Assembly: GCA_050012755.1 (NCBI GenBank)
Contig: JBEKGO010000005.1
Location: 12,543 to 76,542 of the forward strand
Length of the DNA stretch: 64,000 nt
Reading direction: 5' to 3'
Origin: Candidatus Bathyarchaeia archaeon
Lineage (GTDB): Archaea > Thermoproteota > Bathyarchaeia > Bathyarchaeales > Bathycorpusculaceae
Below, piece after piece: positions 3,669 to 57,895 of this stretch. Both the position numbers and the translations under genes were made by a program. Under the pieces are notes generated by a model. That model searched no databases. It was not told the DNA's origin and saw only the letters and a program-made list of their open reading frames with translations. Numbering within the stretch: position 1 is the first letter of the stretch; every line of letters starts with the position of its first letter.

Positions 3669-4166
3669 ATGGCCGAATTCAGTCAACCGCTTCCTGAGCT
3701 CATTACGCTTTTACTAATTCCAATCGTAGTATACATTTTAGGGAGAGTATCCGAAGAAGGCGGAAAATCAGCTTATAGGAAATGGCGAGGTGAGATTGTT
3801 TTCAAAAAAGAAACTGAGGGGGAGACTGCTGCCTTAACCATCCAAACTAACTCACCGGTATATTTAGACGACTTAACAGTGCACCTTAAAAACAAACCGT
3901 TTGATGTGCTTTCCCAAATCAAGGACCAACTGAAGGTCGATCAAAACAAACGCATACAATTTAGTCCTCTGGACAAAATACGAATCGAGGGCATTCTTCA
4001 AGAACGCGGTGATAGGAAGTTATTTGTAGATGCTTACATTGGCATTGACAATGCATGTTTCTCCGAAGACCTTGATGTAGAATATTCAAAAGCCGAGGAA
4101 TTTATGGAAAACACGAAAATGACCCTTGAAACTTCAAGGAAAGTCTACAACCGCTTTCTGCTTTAA
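3669..4166 (+). CDS. Membrane-anchored hypothetical protein
   Basis: 165 aa; N-terminal TM helix LITLLLIPIVVYILG followed by basic residues. Confidence 0.7.
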   Translation: MAEFSQPLPELITLLLIPIVVYILGRVSEEGGKSAYRKWRGEIVFKKETEGETAALTIQTNSPVYLDDLTVHLKNKPFDVLSQIKDQLKVDQNKRIQFSPLDKIRIEGILQERGDRKLFVDAYIGIDNACFSEDLDVEYSKAEEFMENTKMTLETSRKVYNRFLL

Positions 4167-4169
4167 CAG

Positions 4170-4358
4170 TTAGACGCGTTTTTTCTTAATTACTATGTAA
4201 TCCTGATAATTGGGATCGAGTATCTGGAAGTATTCAATGTCTTGATTAACGCCTAATTCAAGGTGGTCCACCACACTTGCTGGAATGTAGAGCTTGTTAT
4301 TGCTGTATAACTTGCCTGTCCCAATAGACTTCAATTCGTTGGGTGCAATAGTTACCAT
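4170..4358 (-). CDS. AbrB/MazE/SpoVT-like DNA-binding protein
   Basis: 62 aa; KLYIPASVVDHLELGVNQDIEY matches the swapped-hairpin pattern. Confidence 0.65.
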   Translation of the reverse strand: MVTIAPNELKSIGTGKLYSNNKLYIPASVVDHLELGVNQDIEYFQILDPNYQDYIVIKKKRV

Positions 4359-4609
4359 AAGTCATCAGCTATCCAGTGGAGTGGTATTTTATTGTTGCCT
4401 AAAATATTTTTGGTCCAAAATTGGTCCAGTTTTAGTACATTAATTGGTCCAAAATTGGTCCACGATGACCAGTAAAGACCTTGGCCTGATTTTGGTCCAA
4501 TATTGGTCCATATTTGGTCCAGGATGAATAAAATCGATTCGTTGGTCTCAGAGGCGGTTTTACCTCGAATTATCTGTGAACTCCCTCCATTAGGATAAAA
4601 AGCTATCAT
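4352..4609 (-). CDS. Small ORF containing the 11-bp repeat cluster, coupled to both neighbours
   Basis: 85 aa; ATGA overlap with the upstream RHH stop and ATGGTAA overlap with the AbrB start; repeats translate as LDQIWTNIGP-like peptides. Confidence 0.45.
   Translation of the reverse strand: MIAFYPNGGSSQIIRGKTASETNESILFILDQIWTNIGPKSGQGLYWSSWTNFGPINVLKLDQFWTKNILGNNKIPLHWIADDLW
4410..4522. repeat. Cluster A of 11-bp-phased TTGGWCCAA palindromic repeats
   Basis: TTGGTCCA at 4410, 4421, 4444, 4455, 4492, 4503, 4514, with degenerate units between. Confidence 0.95.
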
Positions 4610-4788
4610 TTCTGTCTACTTCCTCTATCGAGCCATTTTGAAAAGTCAGCTTTGTTTTCGTAAGCAAATTCGAGGACTAGAGATATCGCAGTCTTAGTGC
4701 TTGGTACTTTTTTCATTATCAAAGTCATTTCGATTCGTAGCTCTTCAACTCGACGCCTATCTTCGTCGCTGATATTTACCGAGGGCAA
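4606..4788 (-). CDS. Ribbon-helix-helix (CopG-like) protein
   Basis: 60 aa; N-terminal strand MPSVNIS followed by two helices. Confidence 0.65.
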   Translation of the reverse strand: MPSVNISDEDRRRVEELRIEMTLIMKKVPSTKTAISLVLEFAYENKADFSKWLDRGSRQK

Positions 4789-5006
4789 AGCTGTTCACAT
4801 GATTTCTATATTTTATTACTATAATATAAGCTTTTATAGTTACTAAATAATATTATTATAAAAATACCTGAATTCCATTGTTTGATATTTATGTTTAGAA
4901 GAAAGTGAGATTACTGGGGGATGTATCTAACCACCTTCGCATAATGATTTATGAAAGTATTTGATGTTCTTTCCGGGATTTTCTTTCTTTTAGTTTTTTC
5001 CAGAGC

Positions 5007-5813
5007 TTGGTCCAATATCGGTCCATAGTGATCGTAATAGAGTTGGTCCAATTGTTGCCCATAAATGGTCCTTTTTTAGGGCAAGAATTGGTCCAATAAT
5101 GGTCCAGATTTGGTCCAAGGCAAGAAGTAATATCTCCTTGACGACGGCAGCTGTGGCAACTGCGCTAATGCCGGCGAAAACACCAGCTGTAGTTGATGCG
5201 GTGAATGCAGCGGAGTCGGAAGTTGTTAAAAGAACTGCTTTTCGCCGTTGAAATTTTGGTCCAATATTGGTCCAAATTTGGTCTAAGACGAAAAAAAGAA
5301 AATAGACAGGAGATGGCGACAGCAGCGGCAATTGAAGTAATTGCGGCGAAGGCAACAATCGCATAGATGGCGGAGGAGGCGGCGGCGGAACTGAACAAAA
5401 GAAATACAACTATGTCATCAAATTATTGGTCCAATTTGGAGCGTGGAAACTGTTGGACCAAAATTACCCCAAAGTTGGTCCACTATTGGTCCAAAAAAAG
5501 TCAAGGTTGCGATAACAGCGCTGATCGTGATGGTGGAAGCAACTATGCACAAGGCTAAGATGGACGCCACTAATTTCGCGATTAACTTCTTTGGTTCAAT
5601 ATTGGTCCAGATTTGGTCCAAGATAAAGAAGTTAATGCATTGACGACGTCGGCAGTGGTTGTAGCCTCAGTAATGGCGAATAGGCAACAATCAACGGGGG
5701 CAGCACCACGCAAAAATTACACTGCCACTGAATTTATTGATCCAATATTGGTCCAGAATAAGGTCATTTATTGGACCATTTTTAGTCCTAAAATTGGTCC
5801 ATTATTGGTCCAA
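5007..5813. repeat. Clusters B-F of 11-bp-phased TTGGWCCAA repeats separated by 96-139 bp spacers
   Basis: Clusters at 5007-5118, 5256-5286, 5426-5494, 5591-5621, 5737-5813; most steps within a cluster are exactly 11 bp; spacers are GC-rich and triplet-periodic. Confidence 0.95.
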
Positions 5814-5898
5814 AATCAAACTGTTAAACCTTAGTTGTTTGTCAAATTTTAAATAGCCATGAACATAGAGTTAGATTAACAGTCAAGAGTGATACCGT

Positions 5899-6930
5899 TT
5901 GAAATCTCCATTCGCACCATTCGACATCGAATCAACTAATTCAGAAGATTTCTTCCAAGCATTGTTGCCGTTAATCCCAAGGGCTATCGAGGTTGGACAT
6001 GCCTGCTATGAGCAAGTCCTAATAAAAGATGGCAGAATTGAGGAAGGAGAATACGATAAAGCCAAGGGGCTAGAAGGATTATACGTAAGTTCAATGGAAA
6101 TTTCAGATGATAGTGCTGGTTTCTCATTAAAAGGTCGTGCCTTTGCCAGCACTCCGATAGTAAAAGATCTGGAGAACACTTTGCTTAATTTGCGAGACTA
6201 TTTACTTACCTTAGGAGTCTACGACCCTAAGCCGTGTAAAGGACACCATGATCTTTTTTGTAGTCTGGTTATTGAAACCATGTTTTTCATGCCTGGCTCT
6301 TTTAGGATTAATTTAGTTGTTCGCAAATTACATGATGAAACCTATGAAGGAAGTGTCGGTGTCTCTTATGAAACTCTAGTCAATGACATAATCGAAGCAA
6401 AATCACATTTGACAGAATCAAAAAGAATCCGCGACCAGACATACGAGGAAATGCTGAAGAAGGTTAAGGATGCAGAAACTACCGATGAAAAAAAGAAAAC
6501 TCTAGAAAGCTTTGCCAATATTCTTTTTACTGACGCAGGATTTGAAGTAAAATACATAAGTAAAAGAGGAATTGATAGCGAGGTTGACCTATTTGTTATC
6601 AATGAATCTAAGGATAATTTTAAGATGCAACTGGGTAACCCGATTATAGTAGAATGTAAAAACATAAGTGAACCTGCAACTTCCAGCATCATTCGCAATT
6701 TTCAGACGAAGCTAATGGACAAAGCAGCATTTACAGGCGTATTATTTTCACTCAAAGGCATCACTGGTTCTAACGACGCCCAAAATGCAAAAGCTGCAAT
6801 TAGAACCTCTCTAATCGCACGCAACACGCGCATAATAGTAATTGACGGAAATGACCTCGAAAAAGTAGCGCAAGGGGAGTCATTCCTGTCTGTTCTCAGG
6901 GAAAAATTCTATGAGCTATCGACCATCTGA
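5899..6930 (+). CDS. Mrr-like (type IV) restriction endonuclease, PD-(D/E)xK C-terminal domain
   Basis: EVDLFV...IIVECKN motif and downstream Mrr_cat-like GVLFS...IIVIDGNDL; about 200 aa unassigned N-terminus. Confidence 0.75.
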   Translation: MKSPFAPFDIESTNSEDFFQALLPLIPRAIEVGHACYEQVLIKDGRIEEGEYDKAKGLEGLYVSSMEISDDSAGFSLKGRAFASTPIVKDLENTLLNLRDYLLTLGVYDPKPCKGHHDLFCSLVIETMFFMPGSFRINLVVRKLHDETYEGSVGVSYETLVNDIIEAKSHLTESKRIRDQTYEEMLKKVKDAETTDEKKKTLESFANILFTDAGFEVKYISKRGIDSEVDLFVINESKDNFKMQLGNPIIVECKNISEPATSSIIRNFQTKLMDKAAFTGVLFSLKGITGSNDAQNAKAAIRTSLIARNTRIIVIDGNDLEKVAQGESFLSVLREKFYELSTI

Positions 6931-8948: not shown

Positions 8949-9155
8949 TCAAGTCGCTCCCGAAAACCTATGGCCGCATTCATGGCAGAGGTAACGCTGA
9001 ACCTTTCCTGTTCGGGTGTATCTCATTCCATCTTTGCAGTTTCTTTGACTGTTGCAATCTGTGCAGGTTACAACCTTTCGTCTGGATTCGCCGCTGAGAA
9101 TGTGTTCTGGGAAGATTTTGCCGGAGTCTGGGCAATTTACGATCTTGTGTTTCAA
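8949..9155 (-). CDS. Small zinc-ribbon protein (IS1 InsA-like / integrase N-terminal-like), paralog of 10299-10502
   Basis: CTDCNS...KDGMRY...VQRYLCHECGHRFS; first knuckle degenerate (CPDS). Confidence 0.6.
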   Translation of the reverse strand: MKHKIVNCPDSGKIFPEHILSGESRRKVVTCTDCNSQRNCKDGMRYTRTGKVQRYLCHECGHRFSGAT

Positions 9156-9328
9156 TTCTTATCGCTTCGGCTCTTTCGCCAAGCACGCTAAAAGAAAAGG
9201 GGGGGTTTTGCGGGAGATGTGTCCAGCCATCCTATATTAAGGATTTAATAAAGAGTTGATGAAGGACAGTAGCGTCCAACCTAAGCGAATTCAGGGTTAA
9301 TTACTCATGCACTAAATGTTTGCTTGAT

Positions 9329-9399
9329 AAAAAAAGGAAATTAGTTGCGGAGAAACCTACTGGGTGGTGATACCGCCTCTTTCTCTGGTGTTCGAATCC
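9329..9399 (+). repeat. Diverged direct-repeat copy of the att-proximal sequence, ending in a T-loop-like GTTCGAATCC
   Basis: aaaaaaagg...tgcggagaaacctac..ggtgata..ctttctctggtgttcgaatcc aligns with 10536-10609. Confidence 0.75.
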
Positions 9400-9538
9400 A
9401 ATCACCTTTGCAGAAGCACCTGGGATTTGATTTCCATTCTAGTCCTATTCGATCGCTTTCTCTTTATTTATAAGGAAGCTGGAAATGCATTGACAGGCCA
9501 TTTATAAAGCAACTGTCAATGGAGGCTCACTACTTGCC

Positions 9539-10298: not shown

Positions 10299-10502
10299 TC
10301 ATGAAAACCTACGACCGCAGTCTCGGCAATAATAGCGCTGAAAGACTCCGGACGCCGTGTATCGTTTTGCGTCTTTTCGGTTCCTATCACTGCCGCATCG
10401 CGGGCACTTAACAATCGGCTTATCTGCTTGGCTGGTTTCATGCCAAAACTCTTTAGGCAATAACTTACCGCAATGAGGACAATTCATTACTTTTTGGTTC
10501 AT
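10299..10502 (-). CDS. Small double zinc-ribbon protein (IS1 InsA-like / integrase N-terminal-like)
   Basis: MNQKVMNCPHCGK...CPRCGSDRNRKDAKRY...FQRYYCRDCGRRFS; ATG 10502 has a GGAGA SD (ORF track extends to GTG 10595). Confidence 0.7.
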   Translation of the reverse strand: MNQKVMNCPHCGKLLPKEFWHETSQADKPIVKCPRCGSDRNRKDAKRYTASGVFQRYYCRDCGRRFS

Positions 10503-10602
10503 GTTTTTTTCTCCTGCCAAACTGTGTTCGAAGAGAAAAAAAAGGGAAAAGAAACTGCGAAGAAACGTATCGAGAGGTGATATCCCCACTTTCACTGGTG
10601 TC

Positions 10603-10623
10603 CGAATCCCTTCCCCGGCGCCA
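10603..10623 (+). other. attR-like displaced tRNA 3' end (most compatible with tRNA-Ser)
   Basis: CGAATCCCTTCCCCGGCGCCA = T-loop end, 3' T-stem, 3' acceptor strand, G73 and CCA. No pairing 5' half is present upstream. Confidence 0.65.
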
Positions 10624-11045
10624 CATTAAGACCAGATATATGTTGAAGGGCTAAAATTGAAAAAGCCAAGGGTTCTGCTAAGGTCCGGGGTTAAGTAACG
10701 TTTCACAGCTTGGACAGAAATGGAGGATTTTATGCCTGTTCAGCAGATACTATTTTTCCTCATCTTCTACATTCAAACTCCACTTTCTCCAACGTAGTTA
10801 CCGATTATTTTTAAAAAAATAAGTCGGAACAATTTAACTTTTGAGTAATTTCCGTCTTTTAAACCTGTGAGCTTAGGCTCGCCAAAAAACACAATATCTA
10901 ATGGAATGAAATTGCTTTTGCAACATTTTCATGTATAAAAACTTTAATAGCCGAGGTTGCCGAGGTTGGTGTAAAATAAGAACTCCCCATGACCTCCCTC
11001 CTCCGCCTCTCTCTGTCTCTCTAAGTCTATCCAAGATGATGTGTC

Positions 11046-11945
11046 TTGCCACTGTTTGAAACAAGAAAGAGCAATATACTTCAAGATGCTGTTGTCTTAG
11101 ATGCACAATCGGAGCCGCCGGGCGGAACACCTCTTTGCCGTGAAACGTATCTAGCTTCAATGGCTTCAAACATTTCCAGCATTTTCACTTCGGGCCGCGC
11201 CAGAAACCTCTTTGTTTGGGGACCCCCAGGGACAGGCAAAACAACAAGTATTCAATACTTACTGAAGGAAACGCAGCAGCACTCAAAAGATATTACTTGT
11301 CCAGTTGCCGCAGCCTATGTAAATGCGGGCAGAACCAGAAATCCATATTATACTTTACTTGAAATTCTTAAACAGCTTAATATTGAAGTACCAGAAATCG
11401 GATGGCAATTTTTTCGCCTTAAACAGGCTTTCGAGAGCACACTCAAAGAAAAACCCGTTTTAATAGCCATTGATGAAGTTGAAAGCATTCTCTTCAAAGA
11501 AAAAGAGCCTTTAATCTACTACTTGAATCGCCAGCCAAAAACAACACTAATTCTAATTAGCAACAAATTAAGTCAAGCGACTCAACTTCCGGAAAAATGC
11601 TTAAGCACATTACAACCGATGATGATCCTGTTTAATCCATACTCAGCATCAGAAGCATTCCAAATTCTGAAAGCTCGAGCTCAGCGGGCCTTTAAACCAA
11701 ACGTTATTTCGGATGAACTCCTATGCACTATTGCAAAAGCAACCGAGGACATGGCTGATATTCGGCTTGGCATGTCAATGTTACTCACAGCCGCCCAATC
11801 AGCCGAAACGAGCCAAAAAACCACAATCAATAATGAAGACGTTCAATTTGCCATAGAAAATGCGCAGAGAGTGAAAAGCCTCACAACAATTAATGATCTA
11901 AGCAAAAAAGTAAAGAAACATCTTGGCAAGACAATCGATTTCTGA
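11046..11945 (+). CDS. Orc1/Cdc6-like AAA+ ATPase lacking the C-terminal winged helix
   Basis: GPPGTGKT Walker A, LIAIDEVE Walker B, FNPYSASE...ILKAR, DIRLG sensor II; 299 aa. Confidence 0.85.
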   Translation: MPLFETRKSNILQDAVVLDAQSEPPGGTPLCRETYLASMASNISSIFTSGRARNLFVWGPPGTGKTTSIQYLLKETQQHSKDITCPVAAAYVNAGRTRNPYYTLLEILKQLNIEVPEIGWQFFRLKQAFESTLKEKPVLIAIDEVESILFKEKEPLIYYLNRQPKTTLILISNKLSQATQLPEKCLSTLQPMMILFNPYSASEAFQILKARAQRAFKPNVISDELLCTIAKATEDMADIRLGMSMLLTAAQSAETSQKTTINNEDVQFAIENAQRVKSLTTINDLSKKVKKHLGKTIDF

Positions 11946-18663: not shown

Positions 18664-18890
18664 AAAGACTCATTCCTTTGGAAAGGTTTGTTTTTCTTTT
18701 ATGCATATAAAGGTTGTCAATTTATAAGACAACTATCAGAATTTAAGTATTTACTTAAACAAATTGTAGTAATTTCAATACTTTAAATTCAAGAGATATT
18801 GTAACTATTTTAATATGCGTATTTGGTATGAACTTTTTTTCTGTTGAAACGCATTCTTTGAAATTTTGCTTTGCTTCTGTTTCCACAGGT

Positions 18891-18960
18891 GTACGTGCTT
18901 GTACGTGCCTATACTTCCTTGTACTTGCTTGTACTTTGGTGTACTTCTGTGTACGTAACC
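18891..18960 (+). repeat. 10-bp-phased GTAC array (7 units)
   Basis: GTAC at 18891, 18901, (ATAC 18911), 18921, 18931, 18941, 18951. Confidence 0.9.
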
Positions 18961-18989
18961 TACAAACGTTACGAGTTTTAGAACAAAAA
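18956..18989 (+). repeat. Degenerate copy of the conserved anchor motif
   Basis: TAACCTACAAA-CGTTA-CGAGTTTTAGAAC-AAAAA; mostly transition differences from the consensus; followed by GGCAACCCAA as in the 31 kb copies. Confidence 0.65.
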
Positions 18990-19062
18990 GGCAACCCAAT
19001 GTACAGAGGACAAAGTCTTGTGCAGAAACCTTATAATAATCGCCCCGTTTTCGCGCATTTCC

Positions 19063-19136
19063 ACACAGAATTACACATATTAACACATTTTAACACAATT
19101 AGACACATTTCAGCTCAAATCCACACAAATAAACAC
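19063..19136 (+). repeat. 10-bp-phased ACAC array (8 positions)
   Basis: ACAC at 19063, 19073, 19083, 19093, 19103, (19113 degenerate), 19123, 19133. Confidence 0.9.
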
Positions 19137-28818: not shown

Positions 28819-30912
28819 TTAGGGCTTATGGGTGACATTTTTTGGTTGATAAACGCACCATGGATCCTCAGTTAGATAATCGTTCTTTAATTCCGCAGGT
28901 TCATGGAGGTCGCCGCAGTAATCTATGAAGTCATTTGAAAGACCGTACGCTCGGGCTCGGCAGCCACCACATAAAGCGCGATATTCGCAAACGCCGCATT
29001 TGCCTTTAAGTGAATTAGGGTTTCTTAGGTCTTTGAAGACTTTTGAGTTGAACCATATTTCCTTGAAGCTTTTTTCCCGAATATTTCCGAGTTTAATTGG
29101 CAGGTAGGGACAAGGTGTTACATCTCCGTTTGGGTAAATCCGACAATAGTATAATCCAGCGATGCAACCACGAATCCACTGCCGCATATCTAAGCCCATG
29201 CCTTTTGCTATTCGCATAAACTGCGGTGCACAGGAGGGCCTAACGTTTAATCTGTGATTGACGGCTTTTGCAAATGTTTTTGTAATCATTTCTTCATATT
29301 TTACTGGCGAAATGTCGGTTAACTTGATTCCTCGTCCAGTTGGAACAAGAAAGAACAAGTGGAAATTTTCAACGCCTATATTTTCAGCCAATGACATTAC
29401 ATCATCTATTTGATCGTAATTCTGTTGCGTCAAGGTGGCGTTGACTTGAACAAGTACATTGTTTTTTCTCAACGCTTTGCAAGCTTCAACAGCTTTCTCC
29501 CATGCCCCGGCTACTCCTCTAAACTCGTCATGTTGTGCTGGAATATTGGAATCAAGACTAATTGATACAGTAGCTATTCCCGCTTCCTTTAATTTTCTTG
29601 CAGCAGCTTCATCAATGAGGCTTCCGTTGCTTCCAAGCCCCATTTTCAAGCCTTTCTTTGATCCGTAATTGATTAGTTCAAAAATGTCTGGTCGCAAAAG
29701 AGGTTCACCCCCGCTCAGAATTAGAAGTGGTGCGCTAACTTCGTAGATTTGATCTATGAGTTCTTTTGCTTCTTTTGTAGTTAATTCATTGTCAAGTTTT
29801 TTCTCTGTTGCGTTGATGTAGCAGTGAGAACATTTCATGTTGCATTCGCGTGTGACGTTCCAGGACATGACAAGAGGAACAAAACGTTCCGAAGCCTTTG
29901 CCATAGGTGAGTGTGCGAGTTTTAGGTAAAATTCGCAATTCTTATGCGTTGCTAATCGTTTCGGTTGCCAAAGTGTAAATGGAAAAGGAAGCACTGTGTC
30001 TAACATTGCTTTGGCATGAGCAAAACAGAAATGAGTGCAGAACAGCGAAGAAACTTCTGGAGTTACGCTGTATTTTTCCTGTGCATATGTGTGGCTTCCA
30101 AAAACTGGGCAATTCAAAAATTCCATGTGCCCATCTAGAGTGTCTGTTGTCATTGTGTAATTGATGAAGTGATCGCTTAACATAATTGATTGCAGTTTTT
30201 CCCGCCGCATACCAACTTTAAGCGTTACGTCAAGAGCTATGTTAACTGTTTCTTGACCAAATCTATCCTGGACCCTTTGCATTGCGTTCTCTAGGGTAGG
30301 CAGGTCCATGTTTTTTGCCAGTTCAGCCATGACTAGTAAACCCTTGAGTGTTTCGTATTCTTGAATTAAACGCATCTGTACAATCTGTTCTGTCCAGTCA
30401 AGAAACAGTTTTTTTAAAGTTGCAGACGCCTCAGAGTTTTTGTTGTTTAGCAGGTTTTCAACTGCTTTGTTACCTCTCGACAATTTTGTGAAAAGATTAA
30501 TTTTTTCCATTGTTCCTAAATGTGGAGTAAGGGCTATTTGCTGAAAATCGAAGCTAAGTGGCGCGATTCCTCCAATCAGGGCTTTTGCGTCAGATTCAAA
30601 ATCACTATAAATCTCTCTAAGCTTGGACGTCACATCGGGTAAGTCTGAATGCAACTCGTCAATTAGCATGCTTGCTTCAGACTCCATTTTTGTAACCATA
30701 GCCATATGATACAAAAGTGAGCCAGCCATGCTTGGATCGGCTTGTTTGCCACCGTCTACTCCAGTAAAAATTTGAGAAAACAAACTCTTTGCCAAATCAA
30801 AGTTTTTCTCTGTTATGGCGGTTAAGGTTTGATTGAGTTTTTGTTGTCTTAGAAGCAAGAGTTGCGCCCATTTATGGCAGTGTCCTGCGTCGAATTTTGT
30901 TACTCCATCCAC
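28819..30912 (-). CDS. Radical SAM/SPASM enzyme (AhbC/AhbD-like) fused to a 345-aa N-terminal region
   Basis: CNMKCSHC, SGGEPLLR, PSCAPQFMR, SPASM GCIAG...CPY...CGVCEYRALCGGCRARA; N-terminal Cys-containing V4R-like segment. Confidence 0.85.
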   Translation of the reverse strand: MDGVTKFDAGHCHKWAQLLLLRQQKLNQTLTAITEKNFDLAKSLFSQIFTGVDGGKQADPSMAGSLLYHMAMVTKMESEASMLIDELHSDLPDVTSKLREIYSDFESDAKALIGGIAPLSFDFQQIALTPHLGTMEKINLFTKLSRGNKAVENLLNNKNSEASATLKKLFLDWTEQIVQMRLIQEYETLKGLLVMAELAKNMDLPTLENAMQRVQDRFGQETVNIALDVTLKVGMRREKLQSIMLSDHFINYTMTTDTLDGHMEFLNCPVFGSHTYAQEKYSVTPEVSSLFCTHFCFAHAKAMLDTVLPFPFTLWQPKRLATHKNCEFYLKLAHSPMAKASERFVPLVMSWNVTRECNMKCSHCYINATEKKLDNELTTKEAKELIDQIYEVSAPLLILSGGEPLLRPDIFELINYGSKKGLKMGLGSNGSLIDEAAARKLKEAGIATVSISLDSNIPAQHDEFRGVAGAWEKAVEACKALRKNNVLVQVNATLTQQNYDQIDDVMSLAENIGVENFHLFFLVPTGRGIKLTDISPVKYEEMITKTFAKAVNHRLNVRPSCAPQFMRIAKGMGLDMRQWIRGCIAGLYYCRIYPNGDVTPCPYLPIKLGNIREKSFKEIWFNSKVFKDLRNPNSLKGKCGVCEYRALCGGCRARAYGLSNDFIDYCGDLHEPAELKNDYLTEDPWCVYQPKNVTHKP

Positions 30913-31511: not shown

Positions 31512-31575
31512 AGTCAAAAAAAGTCTAAAAAAGTCGGAATTCGTCCAAAAAAGTCAAAATAAGTCAAAAAAAGTG
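31512..31575. repeat. 10-bp-phased AGTC array (7 positions)
   Basis: Plus-strand AGTC at 31512, 31522, 31532, (CGTC 31542), 31552, 31562, (AGTG 31572), with A-tract spacers. Confidence 0.9.
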
Positions 31576-31641
31576 AAGGAATAGAAATGATCTATTCTTT
31601 TGTTTTTTCTGCTATTTTTGTTATGTGTGTTTTGGATTGTT

Positions 31642-31675
31642 TCTTTGGTTTGGGGTTTGCAGCGTTTGCAGGTTG
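31642..31675 (-). repeat. Conserved anchor motif
   Basis: Minus strand CAACCTGCAAA-CGCTG-CAAACCCCAAACC-AAAGA (then AACAATCCAA). Confidence 0.9.
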
Positions 31676-31676
31676 C

Positions 31677-31750
31677 GACTAGATTTGACTATTTTTGACT
31701 TTTTATGTCTAGTTATGACTAGAACTGACTGTTTTTGACCCTTTTTGACT
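31677..31750. repeat. 10-bp-phased GACT array (8 positions)
   Basis: Plus-strand GACT at 31677, 31687, 31697, (GTCT 31707), 31717, 31727, (GACC 31737), 31747. Confidence 0.9.
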
Positions 31751-31885
31751 CCGCATAATCTTAGCTAAATTAATTGACACGGTAAGTTCATAGCTCCACT
31801 GCAAAAACAAAAAACAGTAAATAAAGCAAAAGCATAAGAGCCTAAGCATAAAAGCAGAACTTAAGAAACAGGTAACAAGATCAAA

Positions 31886-33460
31886 ATGAGCGCGCAAGAA
31901 AAACTCCAACAAGCAATCGAGGCTACAATCGCAGCGGGATACCAATTAGACAGCGAAGCTTTCGAATTCCTAAGCCAAAACTTAGACATCAATGACCCAG
32001 TTGACATAATGAATTCAGCCCTTCAGAAGCTTCAGGACCTCGAAGAAAAGCCGTTCTTCATCGACAGAGTTTTCTTAGAAACATTAGCGCAGCAGCTAAC
32101 CGCGTCAGTTATCGAAACACAAAATCAACATCAAGAGCAAAAGGCTTTTGAGCCACCTATTCAGCAGCAGATAAGCCAAATCATTACGGATGAGAACACC
32201 GCTTTTTACCCCTACGCCAGAGACATAAAATCATGCCTAACTATTCTGGAAGATGCAACCGGCAAACTAAGTTCGAACGGAACATTAGAAGAATATGTAC
32301 AGTATTTCCAAGATAGGTTCAAACGTATCGAACATTTGCTGAGGCAAAGAATTGACGTGAGAGCCGCAACATCCATACTTGAAGCGCTCAAATCCCCTCC
32401 AAAAACAAAGCTCAAAATTATTTGTATGATAACGGAAAAAAGAGAATCAAAAAACCAAATGATATTGTCAGTTGAGGATTTGCAAGGCAGCGCAACTGTT
32501 TTGGTTCCTCAAAAAGCGCAGGAAGAAGTCAAAAAAAGAGCCCTCCTTCTTTTGCCAGATCAAGTGGTCTGTTTGGCAGTGATAAAAACACGAACCAACC
32601 TTTTCCTAGCTGAAGACATTATCTTTCCAGAAATAGGCAAAAAACCTCAGCAGAGAGCCCAAGAACAAGTTTATGCTGTCTTAACTTCGGACCTTCACAT
32701 TGGCAGCAATAAGTTTGAAAAAGAAGCATTCAAGCGGTTCATATCATGGCTAAGGGGCAAATATGGAAACGAGGAAATGAAGGAAATAGCAGGAAGAGTA
32801 AAGTACGTTTTGATCGCCGGCGACATAGTTGATGGGGTTGGAATTTACCCTAACCAAGCAAAGGAATTATCTATTCGGGATGTTCATAAACAATATAATT
32901 TTGCAGCTAAATATCTGGAAAAAATTCCTGAGTACATAGAAATAGTGATTTCACCCGGGAATCATGATGCTTCACGTAAGGCTTTACCGCAGCCTGCAAT
33001 CCCAGAAGGCTATTTGACCGGAATTCAAGGGAAAAAAAATATTCATTCTGTTGGAAGCCCCTGCCTGTTGAGCCTGCATGGCGTGGAAGTTTTAATGTAT
33101 CATGGCCGAAGCTTGGATGACATAGTCGCGGTAATACCTGGAATGGATCAGGCTCACCCAGAAAAATCAATGAAACTGTTAATGCAAAGTCGGCATTTAG
33201 CGCCAGTTTACGGTGGAAAAACCATGTTATCGCCAGAGAACCGCGATTACTTAGTTATTGATAGAGTACCAGATATTTTTCACGCGGGCCATATCCACGT
33301 TTTGGGATACCTCAATTATCGTGGAGTGCTTGTTGTGAATTCAGGTGGCTGGCAAGCGCAGACTGATTACATGGAAAGATTAGGGTTGGTTCCTACCCCC
33401 GGAAAAGTGCCAGTAGTAAACCTGCAAACACTAGAAATAACTGTTCTTTCATTCATCTAA
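31886..33460 (+). CDS. polB: DNA polymerase D small subunit (DP1)
   Basis: YFQDRF, OB domain, SDLHIGS, AGDIVDGVGIYP, PGNHDA, HAGHIH, VNSGGWQAQT. Confidence 0.97.
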   Translation: MSAQEKLQQAIEATIAAGYQLDSEAFEFLSQNLDINDPVDIMNSALQKLQDLEEKPFFIDRVFLETLAQQLTASVIETQNQHQEQKAFEPPIQQQISQIITDENTAFYPYARDIKSCLTILEDATGKLSSNGTLEEYVQYFQDRFKRIEHLLRQRIDVRAATSILEALKSPPKTKLKIICMITEKRESKNQMILSVEDLQGSATVLVPQKAQEEVKKRALLLLPDQVVCLAVIKTRTNLFLAEDIIFPEIGKKPQQRAQEQVYAVLTSDLHIGSNKFEKEAFKRFISWLRGKYGNEEMKEIAGRVKYVLIAGDIVDGVGIYPNQAKELSIRDVHKQYNFAAKYLEKIPEYIEIVISPGNHDASRKALPQPAIPEGYLTGIQGKKNIHSVGSPCLLSLHGVEVLMYHGRSLDDIVAVIPGMDQAHPEKSMKLLMQSRHLAPVYGGKTMLSPENRDYLVIDRVPDIFHAGHIHVLGYLNYRGVLVVNSGGWQAQTDYMERLGLVPTPGKVPVVNLQTLEITVLSFI

Positions 33461-33490: not shown

Positions 33491-34717
33491 CTAGGTTTTT
33501 GTGTGAGTCTGTGGCGAATAGCAGATTAAACGGCTAAAGCGAGTATCGTCATTAAATACATCTCGGATCAAGCTTCTTGAGATTTCAAGTCTTATTTTTT
33601 TGGTTCTGCCGTATCTCCCCATGCTCACAACTTTGGCGTTAGCAAGTCCCATAGAATCCAACTCATTAATTAGAGTGCCCAATCGCCGTTGTGTCAGCAA
33701 CCCAGAACCCATCTCGCCGCATAATTCATTGTAAACATCGTATATTTCACCCGTTGTCGCGCTTGGTTTATTCAAGTGATAAACGCTGAGTAGAACCAAC
33801 TTAGAATGCAACGTTAAATTCTTTAGAGATTCCACTACACGATTATGTTCAATGTGTTTTTCTGCTTGACGCACATGCTCTTCCGTGACAACTTTGGCGC
33901 CTTGTCGTTCAGCCACTTCTCCAGCGACACGCAGCAAATCCAGAGCGCGCCTCGCATCACCATGCTCTGCAGCAGCCAAAGCCGAGCAAATGCTAAGTGC
34001 TGAATCAGACAAAACACCTTCTTGGAACGATAGTTTTGAGCGTTCAAGAAGAATATTTCGAAGTTCACCTGCATCATATGGCCTAAAAACCAATTCTTCC
34101 TCACTAAGAGAACTAAAAACTCTTGGATCCAAAAATTCCTTCAAACGTAGATCGTTTGATATCCCGATGATCGCGACTTTGCTTTTTGTTAAAGTTTCGT
34201 TTATCCTTGTTAATTCATACATGAAGGCATCGCCTTTATCTTTGATCAACGCATCAATTTCATCAAGAATTATGATGAAAATTATTCTGGTTGAATCTAG
34301 AGCAGTTCTAAACCTGTCGAAAACTTCACCAACTGATAATCCTGTAAAAGGTATTGGCATACCGATGTTTTGGCTTAGAGCTGCGAAAACCCGGTATTCT
34401 GAACCTGTCATTCGACAATTAATATAACAAAATTTTACTTGTGAACCGTACTCTTTTGCCTTTGATTCTAAATGACTTAAGACGTATTTTGTTACTGCTG
34501 TTTTCCCAGTACCGGTTTTTCCATAAATAAAAATGTTAGAGCATCGTGAATCTCTTAGGACTGGTGCCACAGTTTGTCCCAACAATTTTATTTGTTCTTC
34601 TCTGTGGGGTAGTTTCTCTGGAAGATAGTCGTGCCTTAGTACTTCTCTGTCTTTAAACAGCCGAACGCCATTTACGAAATTCTCAAAGACATCTTCTAAT
34701 ATGTTTTGATCCCCCAT
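33491..34717 (-). CDS. cdc6: Orc1/Cdc6 replication initiator
   Basis: YGKTGTGKT, LDEIDAL, LDPRVFSSL, HGDARRALDLLR, C-terminal wH with SMGRYGRTK. Confidence 0.97.
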   Translation of the reverse strand: MGDQNILEDVFENFVNGVRLFKDREVLRHDYLPEKLPHREEQIKLLGQTVAPVLRDSRCSNIFIYGKTGTGKTAVTKYVLSHLESKAKEYGSQVKFCYINCRMTGSEYRVFAALSQNIGMPIPFTGLSVGEVFDRFRTALDSTRIIFIIILDEIDALIKDKGDAFMYELTRINETLTKSKVAIIGISNDLRLKEFLDPRVFSSLSEEELVFRPYDAGELRNILLERSKLSFQEGVLSDSALSICSALAAAEHGDARRALDLLRVAGEVAERQGAKVVTEEHVRQAEKHIEHNRVVESLKNLTLHSKLVLLSVYHLNKPSATTGEIYDVYNELCGEMGSGLLTQRRLGTLINELDSMGLANAKVVSMGRYGRTKKIRLEISRSLIRDVFNDDTRFSRLICYSPQTHTKT

Positions 34718-51997: not shown

Positions 51998-53470
51998 CTA
52001 ATGCGTATACATAAAGGCGGCTCTCCCTGGTGGCGCCGCATGGGAAGCTGCTCGGCAGGCTAATGCTAGAGCCATCAGTTGATCATCATGTTTTCCTTGC
52101 GGATGCCAGAACTTTAAGTGGATCCGTTCTTGCGCAGTTTTCGGCTGCAAATATTCATATTGCTGCTCATTCATCTGCGCAATCAACGCCTTGTCATCTC
52201 CAATTATCTTAAGCAATTTCTTTTCCATTAGGAGTTTAAGATTGTTTAACATGTTTTCTTTTTCTATATCAGTAAAGAATACCCCTTCAACGCCAAACAT
52301 ATCAATTCTGTAAAGTTCATCAACTATTGCATCGCCGATTCCACCCTTGTCCACGCCTAATCTTTCGAATTTGAAGACTTGGTTAGCTCTAGCTACATAT
52401 CCGATTACTTCTGGATAACTGGTGCCTAGTGGAAGCTGCCGTTTATGCACCACCCGCATCTCCCCCGAATCAAATCTTTTCACAACAACTAGCACGCTAT
52501 AATCAACTTGTTTGCCTAAATCTAACCCCGCATAATAAGGTCCCTCAAGCTGTCCCGGTTTTGTTTTTTCAATGTCTTCGATGTAGGCGTTAGGCGAGTC
52601 AGGGTTCCCCAAATCTGCATCTACGCAAGTGACAATCAAGTTAATTGGGAAGAAAGTGTGTGTAGCTTCTACCCATAAGCCTTCAACTTCTCTTTGCCAC
52701 TCTTCCTGCGTCATAACCTCCTTCCATTCATCAAGTTCTTTCTGGCTAACAAGAGGACTTTGATAACTTGCGTAATGATGCACGCTGTAACGATTTGTAT
52801 CCAAAAAAGCTTTGCGAAAAACATGATCAGAGCTCATCGGTGTACCACTCATTACAAGGCAAGAATTAGGTTTTGTTAACATCATCATTATTTCACTTGT
52901 TATCATTTCGCTTGGAACAATCGATGCCTCATCAATGAAAATGAAGTTTGGATGATATCCTCTGAGTCTGTCTTTTGAGCATGGTAAGGCGATGAGTCTT
53001 CCGCCTAGAGGCGGTTTTACTGTTATTATTGTTCTCGAAGTTCCATGTTTTTGAATCAACTCTTTCAATAGTGGGTTAGCCATAGTGGTTGAGAAACAGT
53101 AATCAAACATAATCATCGATTGACGTTGAGTGCTACTTATGATTAAACTCTCAATCTTGGGTTTTGTGAATAACAACCAGAGATTCTTTCTACTAAATAC
53201 CAAACTCTTGCCCCATCCTCGCCCACAAACCGCCACCTGCTTAGAATTAGTGTCTCTGAGAAGCTTCTGATGTTCCGGTGCATGAACAAGCCATTTATCG
53301 CCGCACATTAACACCGCGAAAAATACAGGATCCTGAACAAGTTTGTCAATTACTTCTTTGTGAGATACCAATTGTCTTAGCGCTTTAGGCTTCTGCAACA
53401 AACCCTCGCAAACCGAACCAGCAAATTCCAAGTCATTTGTTACCTTCTCGATGAAAGTCTTCTCGTCCAA
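51998..53470 (-). CDS. terL: Terminase large subunit
   Basis: GRGWGKS Walker A, LRGYHPNFIFIDEA Walker B, SGTP motif III, nuclease GLDLGKQVDYS, VDKGGIGD, HDDQLMALALA. Confidence 0.9.
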   Translation of the reverse strand: MDEKTFIEKVTNDLEFAGSVCEGLLQKPKALRQLVSHKEVIDKLVQDPVFFAVLMCGDKWLVHAPEHQKLLRDTNSKQVAVCGRGWGKSLVFSRKNLWLLFTKPKIESLIISSTQRQSMIMFDYCFSTTMANPLLKELIQKHGTSRTIITVKPPLGGRLIALPCSKDRLRGYHPNFIFIDEASIVPSEMITSEIMMMLTKPNSCLVMSGTPMSSDHVFRKAFLDTNRYSVHHYASYQSPLVSQKELDEWKEVMTQEEWQREVEGLWVEATHTFFPINLIVTCVDADLGNPDSPNAYIEDIEKTKPGQLEGPYYAGLDLGKQVDYSVLVVVKRFDSGEMRVVHKRQLPLGTSYPEVIGYVARANQVFKFERLGVDKGGIGDAIVDELYRIDMFGVEGVFFTDIEKENMLNNLKLLMEKKLLKIIGDDKALIAQMNEQQYEYLQPKTAQERIHLKFWHPQGKHDDQLMALALACRAASHAAPPGRAAFMYTH

Positions 53471-54394: not shown

Positions 54395-57300
54395 TCATAC
54401 TTCATCATTCTTATTACGGGCTTGTGGTTCAGACTCAATAAACTCTTGTTCAATTTCGTTTATCTGGTACAGATCATAAATTTTCTTGTCTAATCTCCTA
54501 TCCAGAACGACCATTTGGTGATGTAATTCGTGGGCTGATTCAAGTAATTTGCAATAGTGTTCTGTTATTCTATTAATGGCTGTCAGGTTTTCATTCTTAA
54601 TCTTATTGAAGATGGGAATCTTTGCAGATAACAGCTTTTGGAACAAATTGCCTGTTCCCATAGATTTCCAGTTCCTATTAGCATACAGCATAACAAATCT
54701 TCTGAGAGAATCATTTATTATTCTGCATTTGAGAACAAGGTAACCACTTTCTACTTTATCACTACCGATTGGTAAAAAGTCAACTCTGAACTCCAGAGAA
54801 TTCTCTTCTTCTGCTACCTCTATTTTCTTAATTGCTCCTTTCCTGATTCTGTCTGCATATTGGCAATCAATCGAGTCTAAGCCGTGATAAATAGTTGAGA
54901 ACTTGGTGTAAGCAATTATCGGAGAATCAACGCATTGGTTAAAATCCAAGTTTATTGCTGCTCTCTTGTTTGACAAGGACATTAGCTCCTCAACGTTACT
55001 GACTATTGACAGGTGAAGCGCTTTTTCAGACTCGTCGGTTAGGTTTATTTTTTTAATTGGGATTTCGGCTAAGGGACCGCTAAAGTACTCCATATATCCG
55101 TCTCTTTTGAGTTTTGTAGCAGATCGGTAATAGAAGTTCATTAAACGAGAATTCAAAATACCCAAAACATACTTTATGCTAACAAGCTCTGTTCTTGATA
55201 CAAGTACATAGGTATCGGTGAGCGTGTAGAACGACTCATTATCAAAAGCGAACTTGTTAGATGTGGCATAATTGGGAACAAGAAGTTTTTCCTTCACACA
55301 ATCAAATAGTTCCCTGTTGCGAGGAACACTGAGTTCATACCATTTACGCGTCCCATGCCTCACTTGAAAGCGCGCTTCAAGTTCAATTCTAAATTGTTTT
55401 AGATAGTTTATTGTGTTAGGGATGGTTTCCGGATTAATTTCAGGAACCGTGTAAATTAGTGATAGGTTTCGATAACCGATATGATACCGCTTAACATCTC
55501 GAGTCTTAACGTATTTCTTTAGTACTTCAGTCTCTAACTGATATTTCTCGATTATTTCAGGAGTTACTATGAATGCTTTGTTTAGACCTGTTGTCATTCC
55601 CTGCCCTATATTACAAATGTCATTATCACCAAGCTTCCACGAATTTCTGCGGATTTTTTCTTTTAGCATTTCTATTTTTGAGGACGAAAAAATCCATGGT
55701 TCAGCGGTCAACTCTCCTTGGAGCCAGCTAAATACACTGATATGCTCATCCTCAAATGAATCTTTGTTTTGATTAGCTTCAATATGTTTGAAAAGATCAC
55801 TGTAACTCTCGGACCAATTTTTAACCTTAACCAATTTTATTCGATTATTTGCACGAGCTTCTGAATCAGAATTGCGCTCAAAAATGATTATGGACGTGAG
55901 AACATTTGCACCTTTGAAAAATTGAACATTCCCTGAATCCAAAATAAGCTTAATCCTTGCATTTTTTAGAATCCAATCCCTTAGTTTATCAGCCCAACGT
56001 GACTCGAGCCAATACCGAGCAACGATGAAGCCTAACACCCCCTTTTCCTTTAGTAGACTCAAACCGCGCATTATGAAATAGAAGAGGATATCGTTCTGAC
56101 CTCTATAAACTTCAGACCATTCAGTGCTTTCCCTGAGGTATTTTTTTAGCTCATCCGATTGCGTTGATATTGTAAAATATGGGGGATTACCTATAATAAC
56201 ATCAAACTTCCCTCCCTCAACGGCTCTAAAACCCTTTTCCCAGCGAAATGGTTGAACGCTAGAAAATCCCTCTCCAAAAAACTTTTTAAGTTCTTCATCT
56301 TCCAATCCAATTATCGAGTTGCCAACCTTGATATTTTCTTGAAGAATTAGCGGTAGCTTTTCACCTCTCTTCAATGCTTGGAGCATGAGGTTTACAGATG
56401 CTATTTCAGTAGCAGAAGAATCAATATCTACCCCGAAAATGTTTTCCATGAGTATCTTCTTTTCAAAGTTCTCAAAAGGTTGATGCCGTCTCGATTCAAG
56501 TTCCCAAGCTTCTTTGTTCTTTCCTTCAGCTCTAAGTCTAAATATTTTGTTCGTTATCTTCTGATTTTCTTCACTGATTTTTTCGTTATATGCCCTATAC
56601 TTTTTTTCAAGCCTTTCAAAAGCCTTGATTAGAAAAGACCCAGAGCCGCACGCAGGATCAAGAATACGGACTTTGGCCACTTGAGAAAATTTTTCAATTG
56701 ATTCCGAAATTCTCTCGTCTTCGTAATACTTAACAGCCTCGTCGAATGCCTCTGCAACTTTCTCAAGTGCGTTGGATGCAATATAATTTACAACGGGAGG
56801 CTCAGTGTAGTATACACCGCTTGATTTCTTCAATATAGGGGTTGGTTTGAGTTCAACATCATTGTTTATGAATAATTTGCTTCCAAGGTAGCTTTCGTAA
56901 GTATTTCCGAGAATGTCGGAAGTGAACTTTCTAAAGTTTTGGCCATAGAGCGCTTTAATGATGTCAGCCAACGTATCACTACTTATCCTCGAAAGCACTT
57001 TATCGAGCTCTAGGTCTTCTTCGAAGATTTTGCTGTCATGAATTTGGTTAAAACCAACGAAGAGTTGTTTGATGATTTCAGTAAGAGAAGTGTAAGTCCG
57101 TGTTTTGGACCAATACTCAAATGCGGCATGGAGCTGGTCAGGATCCGAAAGAACCCACTTGTCTTCTGCATAGCGAATGATAACAAATCGGTCAATTATT
57201 CTTTGGGTGTATTTTTGGAGCTCCTCAGCTTTCAATTCAGGGCAGTTTCTATGCATATTCCGAGCGAGTTTGAGACGCCAATCATTTAGAGCATTTAGGA

Positions 57301-57895
57301 AATTTAGATCGACATCAGGCCTTTCAATTCTTCCTTCCAGTTTGTTAATATTTCCATCCGATACTTGTTCATTTGTTAAAAGCATTAGATCATCTATTCG
57401 CTCCAAATACTGCGTAGGCGACTCGATGTCGAGAACTACTTCACCAGTTTTAGAGTTAAAAAGCCTAAATTTCTCGAAATTTGTTAATATTGCCCATTTA
57501 GCATCAATACTCATTCCTGCGTAATTAAGCACTTGGCGTTCCTCTGACGTCCAGTCTGCATAAATTTTTTGGCCAGAGAGAGTTAATTGGACCCCTCGCT
57601 CCAAACGGGATGGCACACCGCCAAATCGTTTTGCTTCAACAAAAATAATAGGTTTGCCGCTAACTTTTAGAGCTACATCTGCGTGACCAATCCCTCGCAC
57701 ATAATTCTCTGAATCGTATTCTTTTGAATCGTCAGTTTTCCAGCCTAATATACTAAACAATGGATCTACGTAGTCCTTTCTAACATTTGCTTCACCAATT
57801 TCCTTGAGCCCTTTGTCGCCGAGCTCAAATTTGCGAACGGTATATTTTTGAATAAGCTGCTTTACACCATGCACAACATTGTCATATTCGGCCAT
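54395..57895 (-). CDS. Type IIG restriction-modification enzyme (REase + N6-adenine MTase + TRD)
   Basis: N-terminal HADVAL...FVEAKR, GVYYT, ILDPACGSGSF motif I, IIGNPPY motif IV, TaqI_C-like TRD. Confidence 0.92.
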   Translation of the reverse strand: MAEYDNVVHGVKQLIQKYTVRKFELGDKGLKEIGEANVRKDYVDPLFSILGWKTDDSKEYDSENYVRGIGHADVALKVSGKPIIFVEAKRFGGVPSRLERGVQLTLSGQKIYADWTSEERQVLNYAGMSIDAKWAILTNFEKFRLFNSKTGEVVLDIESPTQYLERIDDLMLLTNEQVSDGNINKLEGRIERPDVDLNFLNALNDWRLKLARNMHRNCPELKAEELQKYTQRIIDRFVIIRYAEDKWVLSDPDQLHAAFEYWSKTRTYTSLTEIIKQLFVGFNQIHDSKIFEEDLELDKVLSRISSDTLADIIKALYGQNFRKFTSDILGNTYESYLGSKLFINNDVELKPTPILKKSSGVYYTEPPVVNYIASNALEKVAEAFDEAVKYYEDERISESIEKFSQVAKVRILDPACGSGSFLIKAFERLEKKYRAYNEKISEENQKITNKIFRLRAEGKNKEAWELESRRHQPFENFEKKILMENIFGVDIDSSATEIASVNLMLQALKRGEKLPLILQENIKVGNSIIGLEDEELKKFFGEGFSSVQPFRWEKGFRAVEGGKFDVIIGNPPYFTISTQSDELKKYLRESTEWSEVYRGQNDILFYFIMRGLSLLKEKGVLGFIVARYWLESRWADKLRDWILKNARIKLILDSGNVQFFKGANVLTSIIIFERNSDSEARANNRIKLVKVKNWSESYSDLFKHIEANQNKDSFEDEHISVFSWLQGELTAEPWIFSSSKIEMLKEKIRRNSWKLGDNDICNIGQGMTTGLNKAFIVTPEIIEKYQLETEVLKKYVKTRDVKRYHIGYRNLSLIYTVPEINPETIPNTINYLKQFRIELEARFQVRHGTRKWYELSVPRNRELFDCVKEKLLVPNYATSNKFAFDNESFYTLTDTYVLVSRTELVSIKYVLGILNSRLMNFYYRSATKLKRDGYMEYFSGPLAEIPIKKINLTDESEKALHLSIVSNVEELMSLSNKRAAINLDFNQCVDSPIIAYTKFSTIYHGLDSIDCQYADRIRKGAIKKIEVAEEENSLEFRVDFLPIGSDKVESGYLVLKCRIINDSLRRFVMLYANRNWKSMGTGNLFQKLLSAKIPIFNKIKNENLTAINRITEHYCKLLESAHELHHQMVVLDRRLDKKIYDLYQINEIEQEFIESEPQARNKNDEV

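Follow-up and report, generated by a model that had tools for sequence, protein, structure and literature searches.

Why does an archaeal chromosome carry some thirty copies of a short palindrome, set 11 bp apart in clusters beside the gene of a 62-residue protein? The question is raised by a 64,000-nucleotide stretch from Candidatus Bathyarchaeia archaeon (assembly GCA_050012755.1, contig JBEKGO010000005.1, forward-strand positions 12,543 to 76,542; hereafter the window, whose own numbering is used below), a piece of archaeal chromosome that is represented in peat and wetland metagenomes. The array lies between minus-strand open reading frames (ORFs) for two small proteins, p62 and p60, and the plus-strand gene of a nuclease with a Mrr_cat domain. 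The explanation favoured here, at a probability of about 60%, is that the repeats are binding sites (iterons) of a conserved and undescribed three-part module, which comprises the phased array itself, the AbrB/SpoVT-like protein p62 and a membrane-anchored protein, p165. Because the repeats always occur just upstream of a p62-like gene that is paired with a gene for a membrane-anchored protein, the array is most likely a docking array for p62, acting as an operator and/or a centromere-like platform.

The original prediction, made from the letters of the window, had noted five clusters (B to F) separated by 96–139 bp, and the measured gaps are 137, 139, 96, and 115 bp; a further cluster, A, is part of the same array although it falls outside the interval described at the time. 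In the window the octamer TTGGWCCA has 45 strand-matches, against 3.7 expected and a maximum of 10 in 100 shuffles, and 37 of them fall at 4410–5813, where they represent 23 distinct exact sites, in agreement with the approximate hand count that had included cluster A. When up to two mismatches to TTGGTCCAA are allowed the array has 30 units. Distances between units of 11 bp (15 pairs), 22–23 bp (9), 34 bp (5), and 45 bp (3) bear out the proposed 11-bp phasing, most of the remaining short distances being multiples of 11 give or take 1 bp, and repeat analysis also recovers the recurring triplet block. The core GGWCC is 20 times denser within the array than in the rest of the window (18.3 versus 0.93 per kb), which, together with the phasing, answers for the window the concern that the motif might be equally frequent everywhere. 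Orientation is biased as well, 24 of the 26 array cores reading the same way (24 GGTCC, 2 GGACC) versus 31 and 27 outside the array. Misassembly, the other concern raised, is excluded since seven independent JGI and Logan assemblies (different samples and assemblers) agree with 100% identity over the 1.9 kb at 4101–6000 and the low-depth contigs of four further runs over the array contain neither a variant nor a joint. Population polymorphism at the array was considered as a source of evidence and proved unusable, there being no variants in the contigs of these four partial-share runs. Public annotations place genes of 85, 66, and 124–139 codons across the array (4352–4609, minus strand; 5443–5643, plus strand; 4990–5409, minus strand, respectively); these calls are almost certainly spurious translations of the iterons, with repeats of the LDQIWTNIGP type.

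The evidence that carries the proposed reading comes from related loci. p62 has one close homologue (P0003, 89% identity, locus L125), an exhaustive HMMER search returned seven distant ones (P0007–P0013, 41–50% identity), and the family numbers nine members when clustered at 50% identity or less. A p165 homologue (33–78% identity) adjoins the p62 homologue in every locus; the two genes are convergent in the window, L125, L135, L137, L140, L141, L142, and L146, and co-directional, overlapping or nearly abutting, only in L143 and L148. Nine loci with DNA available upstream of the p62-like gene were compared, and in all nine T(G/A)GWC(C/T)A sites stand directly upstream of it, 5–25 per locus versus 0.1–0.8 expected. 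The observed number of pairs at +11 bp in these loci was reached by none of 1000 shuffles, the pooled distances in the seven distant loci peak at 11 bp (31), 22 bp (22), and 33 bp (18), and the last iteron lies 7–70 bp from the p62 start codon throughout. As p165 adjoins at every locus and the array is present wherever upstream DNA is available, the conserved entity is the three-part module, and the recurrence of the same array before each p62 homologue lends support to the wrapped nucleoprotein platform of protein-binding iterons that had been among the first proposals.

The link of the array to p62 and p165 is thus strictly syntenic over nine diverged loci, and its core drifts between them. 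It is TGGWCCA in the window, L125, L140, L142, and L143, TGGWCTA or TAGACTA in L141, and TAGWCTA in L146 and L148, and the orientation of the central W is mixed in the distant loci, so that the conserved feature is the 7-bp palindrome T-R-G-W-C-Y-A, whose TAGWCTA form has no GGWCC. Since the core varies by locus, a binder encoded by the module is more plausible than either a restriction site or a factor of the host, and the binding specificity appears, from these comparisons, to evolve together with the module. Dispersed arrays of several triplet-bearing clusters are recurrent: iteron clusters flank a nuclease operon on both sides in L125, five clusters extend across 830 bp in L142, and arrays stand on both sides of the p62-p165 operon in L143/L144.

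The neighbourhoods of these loci differ. In L143 the module is on a contig with a Prim-Pol replicase and in L137/L138 it adjoins a family-B polymerase gene, which fits an origin of the module in mobile elements; the neighbours in L142 are ordinary metabolic genes. A neighbour of the module in L148 (1906–2460, minus strand) encodes a 184-residue protein without a Pfam match, in which a D...E-L-K pattern (CDLALGPSDEVLVELK) resembles by eye the motif of PD-(D/E)xK nucleases. Relatives of the module were found neither in 72,556 plasmids and 50,697 phages (tblastn) nor in IMG/VR, and the trio of array, p62, and p165 is unmatched in Pfam, PDB, PADLOC, PHROGs, PLSDB, INPHARED, and IMG/VR. No archaeal centromere-binding protein of the AbrB type emerged from a literature search, and a search by the iteron motif retrieved primers only.

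The site design itself is more widespread than the module. A scan for three successive TGGWCCA-N4 units detected 99 stretches in 185,579 genomes (the source genome of the window is not among the matches) and 23 in IMG/VR, against about one expected by chance. All of them (loci L003–L124, for instance L108 at 5047–5181, L123, L103, and L111) are bacterial or from phages. Because none of the 99 and 23 stretches encodes a relative of p62 or p165 by tblastn or hidden Markov model (HMM) search, they are read as convergent arrays, in which other protein families seem to have arrived at the same site design. Among them are T4-like phage contigs in which an intergenic region holds the same triplet twice, at a distance of 106 bp.

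The identity of the proposed binder rests on several lines of comparison. p62 is a single domain of about 60 residues without a C-terminal toxin-binding tail, and it has no significant sequence match in Pfam or PDB; one of the nine family members matches MazE_antitoxin or PrlF weakly (E about 0.08–0.1). In hhalign the family aligns with a profile of AbrB, SpoVT, MazE, and VapB over 37 columns covering the beta2-alpha-beta3-beta4 core (probability 83%, E 8.9e-6). The reference set was a small one of four sequences, AbrB, SpoVT, MazE, and the VapB-type antitoxin of the window, and the match is a lead rather than proof; an HMM of the same set matches the L141 member of the p62 family (E 0.002). 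The AlphaFold2 (AF2) model of the monomer (mean predicted local distance difference test score, pLDDT, 74) has strands at residues 9–16, 40–46, and 55–59 and a helix at 27–32, a strand-helix-strand-strand order compatible with the beta-beta-alpha-beta-beta topology of AbrB, and the family alignment has E8, L9, G13, G15, K22, and P26 as invariant residues. p62 is therefore described as AbrB-like, its membership in the family being tentative. Neither p62 nor p165 matches helix-turn-helix or PadR families.

In the partner protein p165 a hydrophobic helix, conserved at the N-terminus, precedes a soluble domain of about 125 residues; its gene is convergent with that of p62 in the window. Pfam, PDB, PADLOC, and PHROGs contain nothing that matches the protein, its AF2 model is of low confidence (pLDDT 52.8), and a fold search with that model gave nothing meaningful; scans of metagenomes and IMG/VR for relatives returned only one identical copy or none. 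The second small ORF beside the array, p60, looked ribbon-helix-helix-like by eye and was considered as the array binder. It was rejected, being an orphan that matches only itself among 5.8 billion proteins, has no Pfam match and is missing from the related loci, L125 included. PADLOC matched none of p62, p165, and p60; its only matches were weak ones to the neighbours (Mrr-like, HD/dGTPase-like, and winged helix-turn-helix). The features of the array region are collected in Table 1.

Table 1. Features in and around the iteron array, in window coordinates.
Feature	Position	Strand	Basis
p165: 165 aa, N-terminal hydrophobic (membrane-anchor) helix, conserved partner of p62	3669–4166	+	homologue adjacency
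p62: 62-aa AbrB/SpoVT-like protein, proposed iteron binder	4170–4358	-	homologue family, hhalign, AF2
Putative p62 promoter/leader; AT-rich, TATA-like AAATATTTTA (minus strand) directly after last iteron	4359–4409	-	sequence reading
Iteron cluster A: 7 units (2+2+3) and a degenerate unit at 4542; proposed proximal operator of p62	4410–4521		repeat counts; equivalent cluster in L125 at 5981–6136
p60: orphan 60-aa ORF, TTG start, between clusters A and B	4606–4788	-	ORF call; ribbon-helix-helix-like by eye
Very AT-rich stretch; p60 promoter region if p60 is real; sole candidate unwinding element	4789–4870		sequence
Iteron cluster B: at most 10 phased units (6 good); terminal triplet 5088–5118	5007–5118		repeat counts
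Spacer B: GC 50%, 3-nt periodicity; homologues are spacers C and E and the L125 spacer	5119–5255		alignment
Iteron cluster C: triplet	5256–5286		repeat counts
Spacer C: GC 46%, 3-nt periodicity	5287–5425		periodicity test, alignment
Iteron cluster D: 4 good units, inverted one at 5453	5426–5494		repeat counts
Spacer D: GC 45%, 3-nt periodicity	5495–5590		periodicity test
Iteron cluster E: triplet	5591–5621		repeat counts
Spacer E: GC 46%; about 70% identity to L125 spacer 4814–4917	5622–5736		alignment
Iteron cluster F: 6–7 units, inverted one at 5771	5737–5813		repeat counts
Putative promoter of Mrr-type gene; TATA-like TTTTAAATA at 5847–5855, about 30 bp after last iteron	5814–5898	+	sequence reading, inference only
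343-aa nuclease with Mrr_cat domain (type IV restriction-like); gene directed away from array	5899–6930	+	Pfam PF04471, E 1.4e-6

How the module would work can be outlined from the design of its array, an 11-bp-phased 7-bp pseudo-palindrome T(G/A)GWC(C/T)A with AT-rich 4-bp linkers. We infer that p62, rather than p165, is the binder. One p62 dimer would occupy each palindrome without discriminating the central W, the 11-bp spacing and AT-rich linkers would place successive dimers on one face of the helix and so favour cooperative binding, and the triplet of 33 bp would be the basic binding block. The proximal cluster A, which abuts the TATA-like stretch of the putative p62 promoter, would mediate autorepression, while the distal clusters B to F, which reach the divergent promoter of the Mrr-type nuclease, may repress or time its expression. 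Bridging may bring the clusters together in a single large nucleoprotein complex, and p165 could attach this complex to the membrane. A function beyond that of an operator is suggested by the large size of the array and the membrane-anchored partner; a role in membrane tethering or in segregation is nevertheless considered rather unlikely.

The control of the nuclease would be a second output of p62. The TATA-like element TTTTAAATA also follows the iterons upstream of the nuclease operon of L125, where the enzyme, the product of a 223-codon Mrr_cat/Zn-ribbon gene flanked by iteron clusters, is unrelated in sequence to the Mrr_cat protein of the window. Iteron clusters thus border the putative promoters of both nuclease genes, an arrangement in keeping with transcriptional control rather than with a decoy role. 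Controller (C) proteins provide a model for this arrangement, having operators before their own gene and before a nuclease gene and thereby delaying or limiting nuclease expression. They resemble the present system in that iterons abut the Mrr-type promoters in the window and L125, and differ in being helix-turn-helix proteins that bind one or two palindromic C-boxes. p62 probably also controls the nuclease gene, in the manner of the controller proteins of mobile restriction systems. In L125 (4750–6136) a 100-codon ORF and the 223-codon nuclease gene lie between iteron clusters, and in the window the orphan p60 lies between clusters and a different Mrr_cat gene outside them; judging from this comparison, gene exchange seems to take place inside the array or next to it.

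Known bacterial systems share parts of this design. StbA of plasmid R388 binds 9-bp repeats separated by 2-bp spacers in arrays of 2, 3, 5, and 2x5 and is both a repressor of several promoters and a centromere-binding protein (bioRxiv 10.1101/2022.04.29.490116). The 9-bp unit and 2-bp spacer amount to the same 11-bp phasing in several direct-repeat arrays, the main array likewise lies upstream of the gene of its binder, and segregation by StbA requires no dedicated nucleoside triphosphatase (NTPase); a bridged complex tied to the membrane would make the archaeal module work in a similar NTPase-independent way. However, StbA, from a conjugative plasmid of bacteria, has a helix-turn-helix (PadR-like) fold and StbB and StbC as partners, whereas the binder proposed here is AbrB-like and is paired, in an archaeal host, with a membrane-anchored protein that has no recognised fold; the window array is also about three times larger than stbS, and its clusters are split by GC-rich spacers of 96–139 bp. 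For the protein side of the proposed model the closest precedent is MraZ, whose SpoVT/AbrB-type cradles bind cooperatively to four phased boxes upstream of their own promoter, ahead of the dcw operon (PMC12957436). Common to both would be the cradle, one short box for each, same-face helical phasing and autoregulation; MraZ differs in being a two-domain protein of about 150 residues that forms 8-12-mer rings on 3–4 boxes of 4–5 bp at 10-bp spacing, and p62, which lacks the DxxxR motif, has no detected sequence link to it beyond the AbrB-core profile match.

Partition systems and antitoxins offer further points of comparison. In ParR/parC, omega of pSM19035 and ParG of TP228, about ten short iterons at one-helical-turn spacing are clustered around the operon promoter, and a small dimeric binder of the ParR/parC type polymerises on the iterons and autoregulates. 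Phased short repeats beside the gene of a small DNA-binding protein are thus a likeness to partition systems of types I, II, and III (ParABS, ParMRC, and TubZRC), but in ParR/parC, omega, and ParG a motor NTPase (ParM or ParA) is always present and the binder is a ribbon-helix-helix protein, whereas no NTPase was found with the module and its proposed binder is AbrB-like. AbrB-type antitoxins (MazE, VapB, and PrlF) have a small swapped-hairpin fold and recognise repeats within the promoter of their own gene, as p62 may do; unlike them, p62 has no toxin-binding tail, most loci have its partner gene in convergent orientation and toxin-antitoxin operators are far smaller than the arrays. The module is accordingly not classified as a type II toxin-antitoxin system, the genes being convergent except in L143 and L148 and a toxin-binding extension being absent. 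A bona fide VapB-type and PIN pair lies 5 kb from the array in the same genomic island. The array does not qualify as a CRISPR (clustered regularly interspaced short palindromic repeats) locus either: its spacers are mutually homologous, an 11-bp unit in triplicate makes up each repeat block, family scans of the window detected no cas genes and the array region has no Rfam match.

Several observations weigh against the proposed reading. The AbrB assignment of p62 is below the Pfam thresholds, Foldseek with the monomer gave nothing at E<0.001 (MazE, 1mvf_D, was retrieved with TMt 0.60 and a probability of 0.41), and DxxxR, the conserved DNA-contact motif of AbrB/MraZ (PMC12957436), is not evident in the p62 family alignment. 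The roughly 30 sites spread over 1.4 kb far exceed the needs of an autoregulatory operator, the uniform orientation of the units in the window may be due to recent duplication alone, and the GC-rich, 3-periodic spacers of 96–139 bp are not accounted for by the iteron model. Of the nine loci, just the window and L125 have a Mrr_cat neighbour, and none of the RNA-seq runs searched contains the locus.

The alternatives have to be considered in the genomic setting of the array, a defence and mobile-element island that spans positions 1 to about 12,000 of the window and upstream DNA seen in longer contigs, core metabolic genes starting at 12,314. The island contains a type I restriction-modification system, DarT/DarG, the Mrr_cat nuclease, an HD/dGTPase-like gene, the PIN/AbrB toxin-antitoxin pair, a Cdc6-like ORF that is truncated and two Zn-ribbon ORFs accompanied by tRNA-like fragments; a direct-repeat search around it found no att sites. 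The Zn-ribbon ORFs (8949–9480 and 10299–10660) are paralogous, and each is followed by a conserved GGTGATAYC...CTGGTGTYCGAATCC stretch that resembles the 3' part of a tRNA, at which neither ARAGORN nor Rfam calls a tRNA. The adjoining Cdc6-like ORF (11046–11945, 299 codons) lacks a winged-helix domain, and together these sequences are probably relics of integrated elements. Elsewhere in the window, 10-bp tandem repeats form two blocks, one of the TGTACTTGCT type and one of the ACACAWATTA type, in the intergenic region between an aconitase gene and an AbrB(MazE)-PhoU fusion gene (18889–19136), and a terminase-large-subunit-like ORF (51998–53470) and a fused restriction-modification enzyme of the MmeI/Eco57I type (54395–57895, 1166 residues) suggest a second mobile or defence region. 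The window also encodes both PolD subunits and a full Orc1/Cdc6. At 31512–31856, intergenic before the gene of the PolD small subunit and adjoining Orc1/Cdc6 (genes at 28819–30912, 31886–33460, and 33491–34717), two opposed arrays of 10-bp units, AGTCAAAAAA x6.3 and TTTGACTATT x6.7, and a third short array form a candidate chromosomal replication origin, and the chromosomal origin is likely to be located at about 31.5–31.9 kb.

The alternative that survives best, although it is rated as rather unlikely, holds that the array is primarily a centromere, with p62 as the centromere-binding protein and p165 as a membrane anchor, in an NTPase-free system for segregating or tethering an archaeal plasmid or virus that became fixed in the chromosomal island, regulation being secondary. 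Centromeres of the parC and parH type are similar to the array in the number and clustering of their sites. The same is true of stbS and tubC (bioRxiv 10.1101/2022.04.29.490116). The proximity of the module to the Prim-Pol replicase in L143 and to the family-B polymerase gene in L137/L138, the relics of integrated elements in the island (the Cdc6-like ORF and the Zn-ribbon ORFs with tRNA-like fragments) and the conserved N-terminal hydrophobic helix of p165 also speak for such a function. However, Pfam scans of the window, L125, L143, L137, L142, and L148 found no NTPase of the ParA, ParM, or TubZ type near any locus, relatives are missing from the plasmid, phage, and IMG/VR collections already mentioned and the L142 module resides beside ordinary metabolic genes. 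A broader version of the proposed module, more speculative still, would make it an NTPase-free DNA-anchoring or silencing system of archaeal mobile elements, in which an AbrB-like polymer on the triplets, bridging of the clusters and a tie to the membrane would both segregate the element and silence toxic cargo such as the Mrr-type nucleases.

The spacers raise the possibility that the region codes for protein, or did so recently. The homology of the spacers after clusters B and E, noted in the original prediction, is confirmed and extends to spacer C and to the spacer of L125, and all four spacers of the array (B to E) are strongly 3-nt periodic, to a degree reached by 0–1 of 500 shuffles. 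They might encode small Ala/Ile/Val-rich hydrophobic peptides, one for each higher-order unit, in the manner of tandem cassettes similar to type I toxins, or else the whole region might be a decayed repeat-protein gene in which the 11-bp repeats are incidental. The codon-usage scores of their best frames (0.12–0.30) overlap those of real genes (0.23 +/- 0.10), minus-strand readings give similar hydrophobic, transmembrane-like peptides in the window and L125 and gene callers predict ORFs of 66–139 codons in the array. Yet selection at the protein level could not maintain an 11-bp period, the hydrophobic frame shifts from unit to unit and is broken by stops in C, E, and L125, and the reading frames have no ATG starts. 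Mismatches between homologous spacers are distributed 8:7:11 over the codon positions (p = 0.6), that is, without a third-position excess; the indels between spacer E and L125 in the nucleotide alignment are not multiples of 3, the strand that scores best for coding differs among the spacers and those of L142 are not periodic. The periodicity is real and specific to the lineage of the window and L125, but the spacers were rejected as coding sequence for their inconsistent frame and the missing third-position excess, and a coding origin of the region is judged improbable. They were also rejected as structured RNA (z-scores from -2.4 to +0.7 and no Rfam match). Within the proposed module, the periodic spacers may possibly encode hydrophobic micro-peptides under the control of the iterons.

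Origin iterons, bound by the initiator of an integrated element, had headed the list of the original prediction, and this explanation is not supported. Multiple clusters of direct repeats, the AT-rich stretch at 4789–4870, a Cdc6-like ORF 5 kb away and the replication genes in L143 and L137 would suit such an origin. Nevertheless, the gene that is consistently linked to the array encodes a 62-residue protein and no initiator, the replication genes vary by locus (Prim-Pol, PolB, or none) and are missing in L125 and L142, the Cdc6-like ORF of the window is without a DNA-binding winged helix and there is no local change of skew at the array. Typical origin iterons measure 17–22 bp, against which the unit of 9+2 bp is short, and the host has its candidate origin at about 31.5–31.9 kb. 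An origin at the array is regarded as improbable.

Least probable is a GGWCC device, whether as a switch sensitive to methylation or as a decoy or sink that occupies the Mrr-type nuclease. Every good unit contains GGWCC, and the association with a nuclease does recur (a Mrr_cat gene adjoins the array in the window and in L125, the latter with Vsr and a C5-methylase fragment nearby). However, relatives keep the same 11-bp phasing with TGGWCTA or TAGWCTA cores that have no GGWCC, the rest of the window has about as many GGWCC sites as expected (58 observed versus 52–64 expected), the two Mrr_cat proteins are unrelated in sequence and no Mrr_cat neighbour was detected at the other module loci.

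Short phased iterons served by a small protein are a familiar design of bacterial plasmids, as in parC, stbS, the omega sites, and the MraZ boxes, whereas, to our knowledge, very little has been established on the maintenance of plasmids, viruses, and islands in archaea or on the control of the toxic cargo that they carry. What is known in the present case is the arrangement of phased iterons before the gene of a small DNA-binding protein; the libraries and literature searched contain no description of its proteins, of a partner anchored in the membrane, of such a system in archaea or of a higher-order array that has periodic spacers. The iteron array explains several spurious gene calls in public assemblies, and the GGWCC restriction-site content of its units is incidental. 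The trio is rare but clearly conserved, and it constitutes a concrete, testable candidate for an archaeal maintenance or control system.

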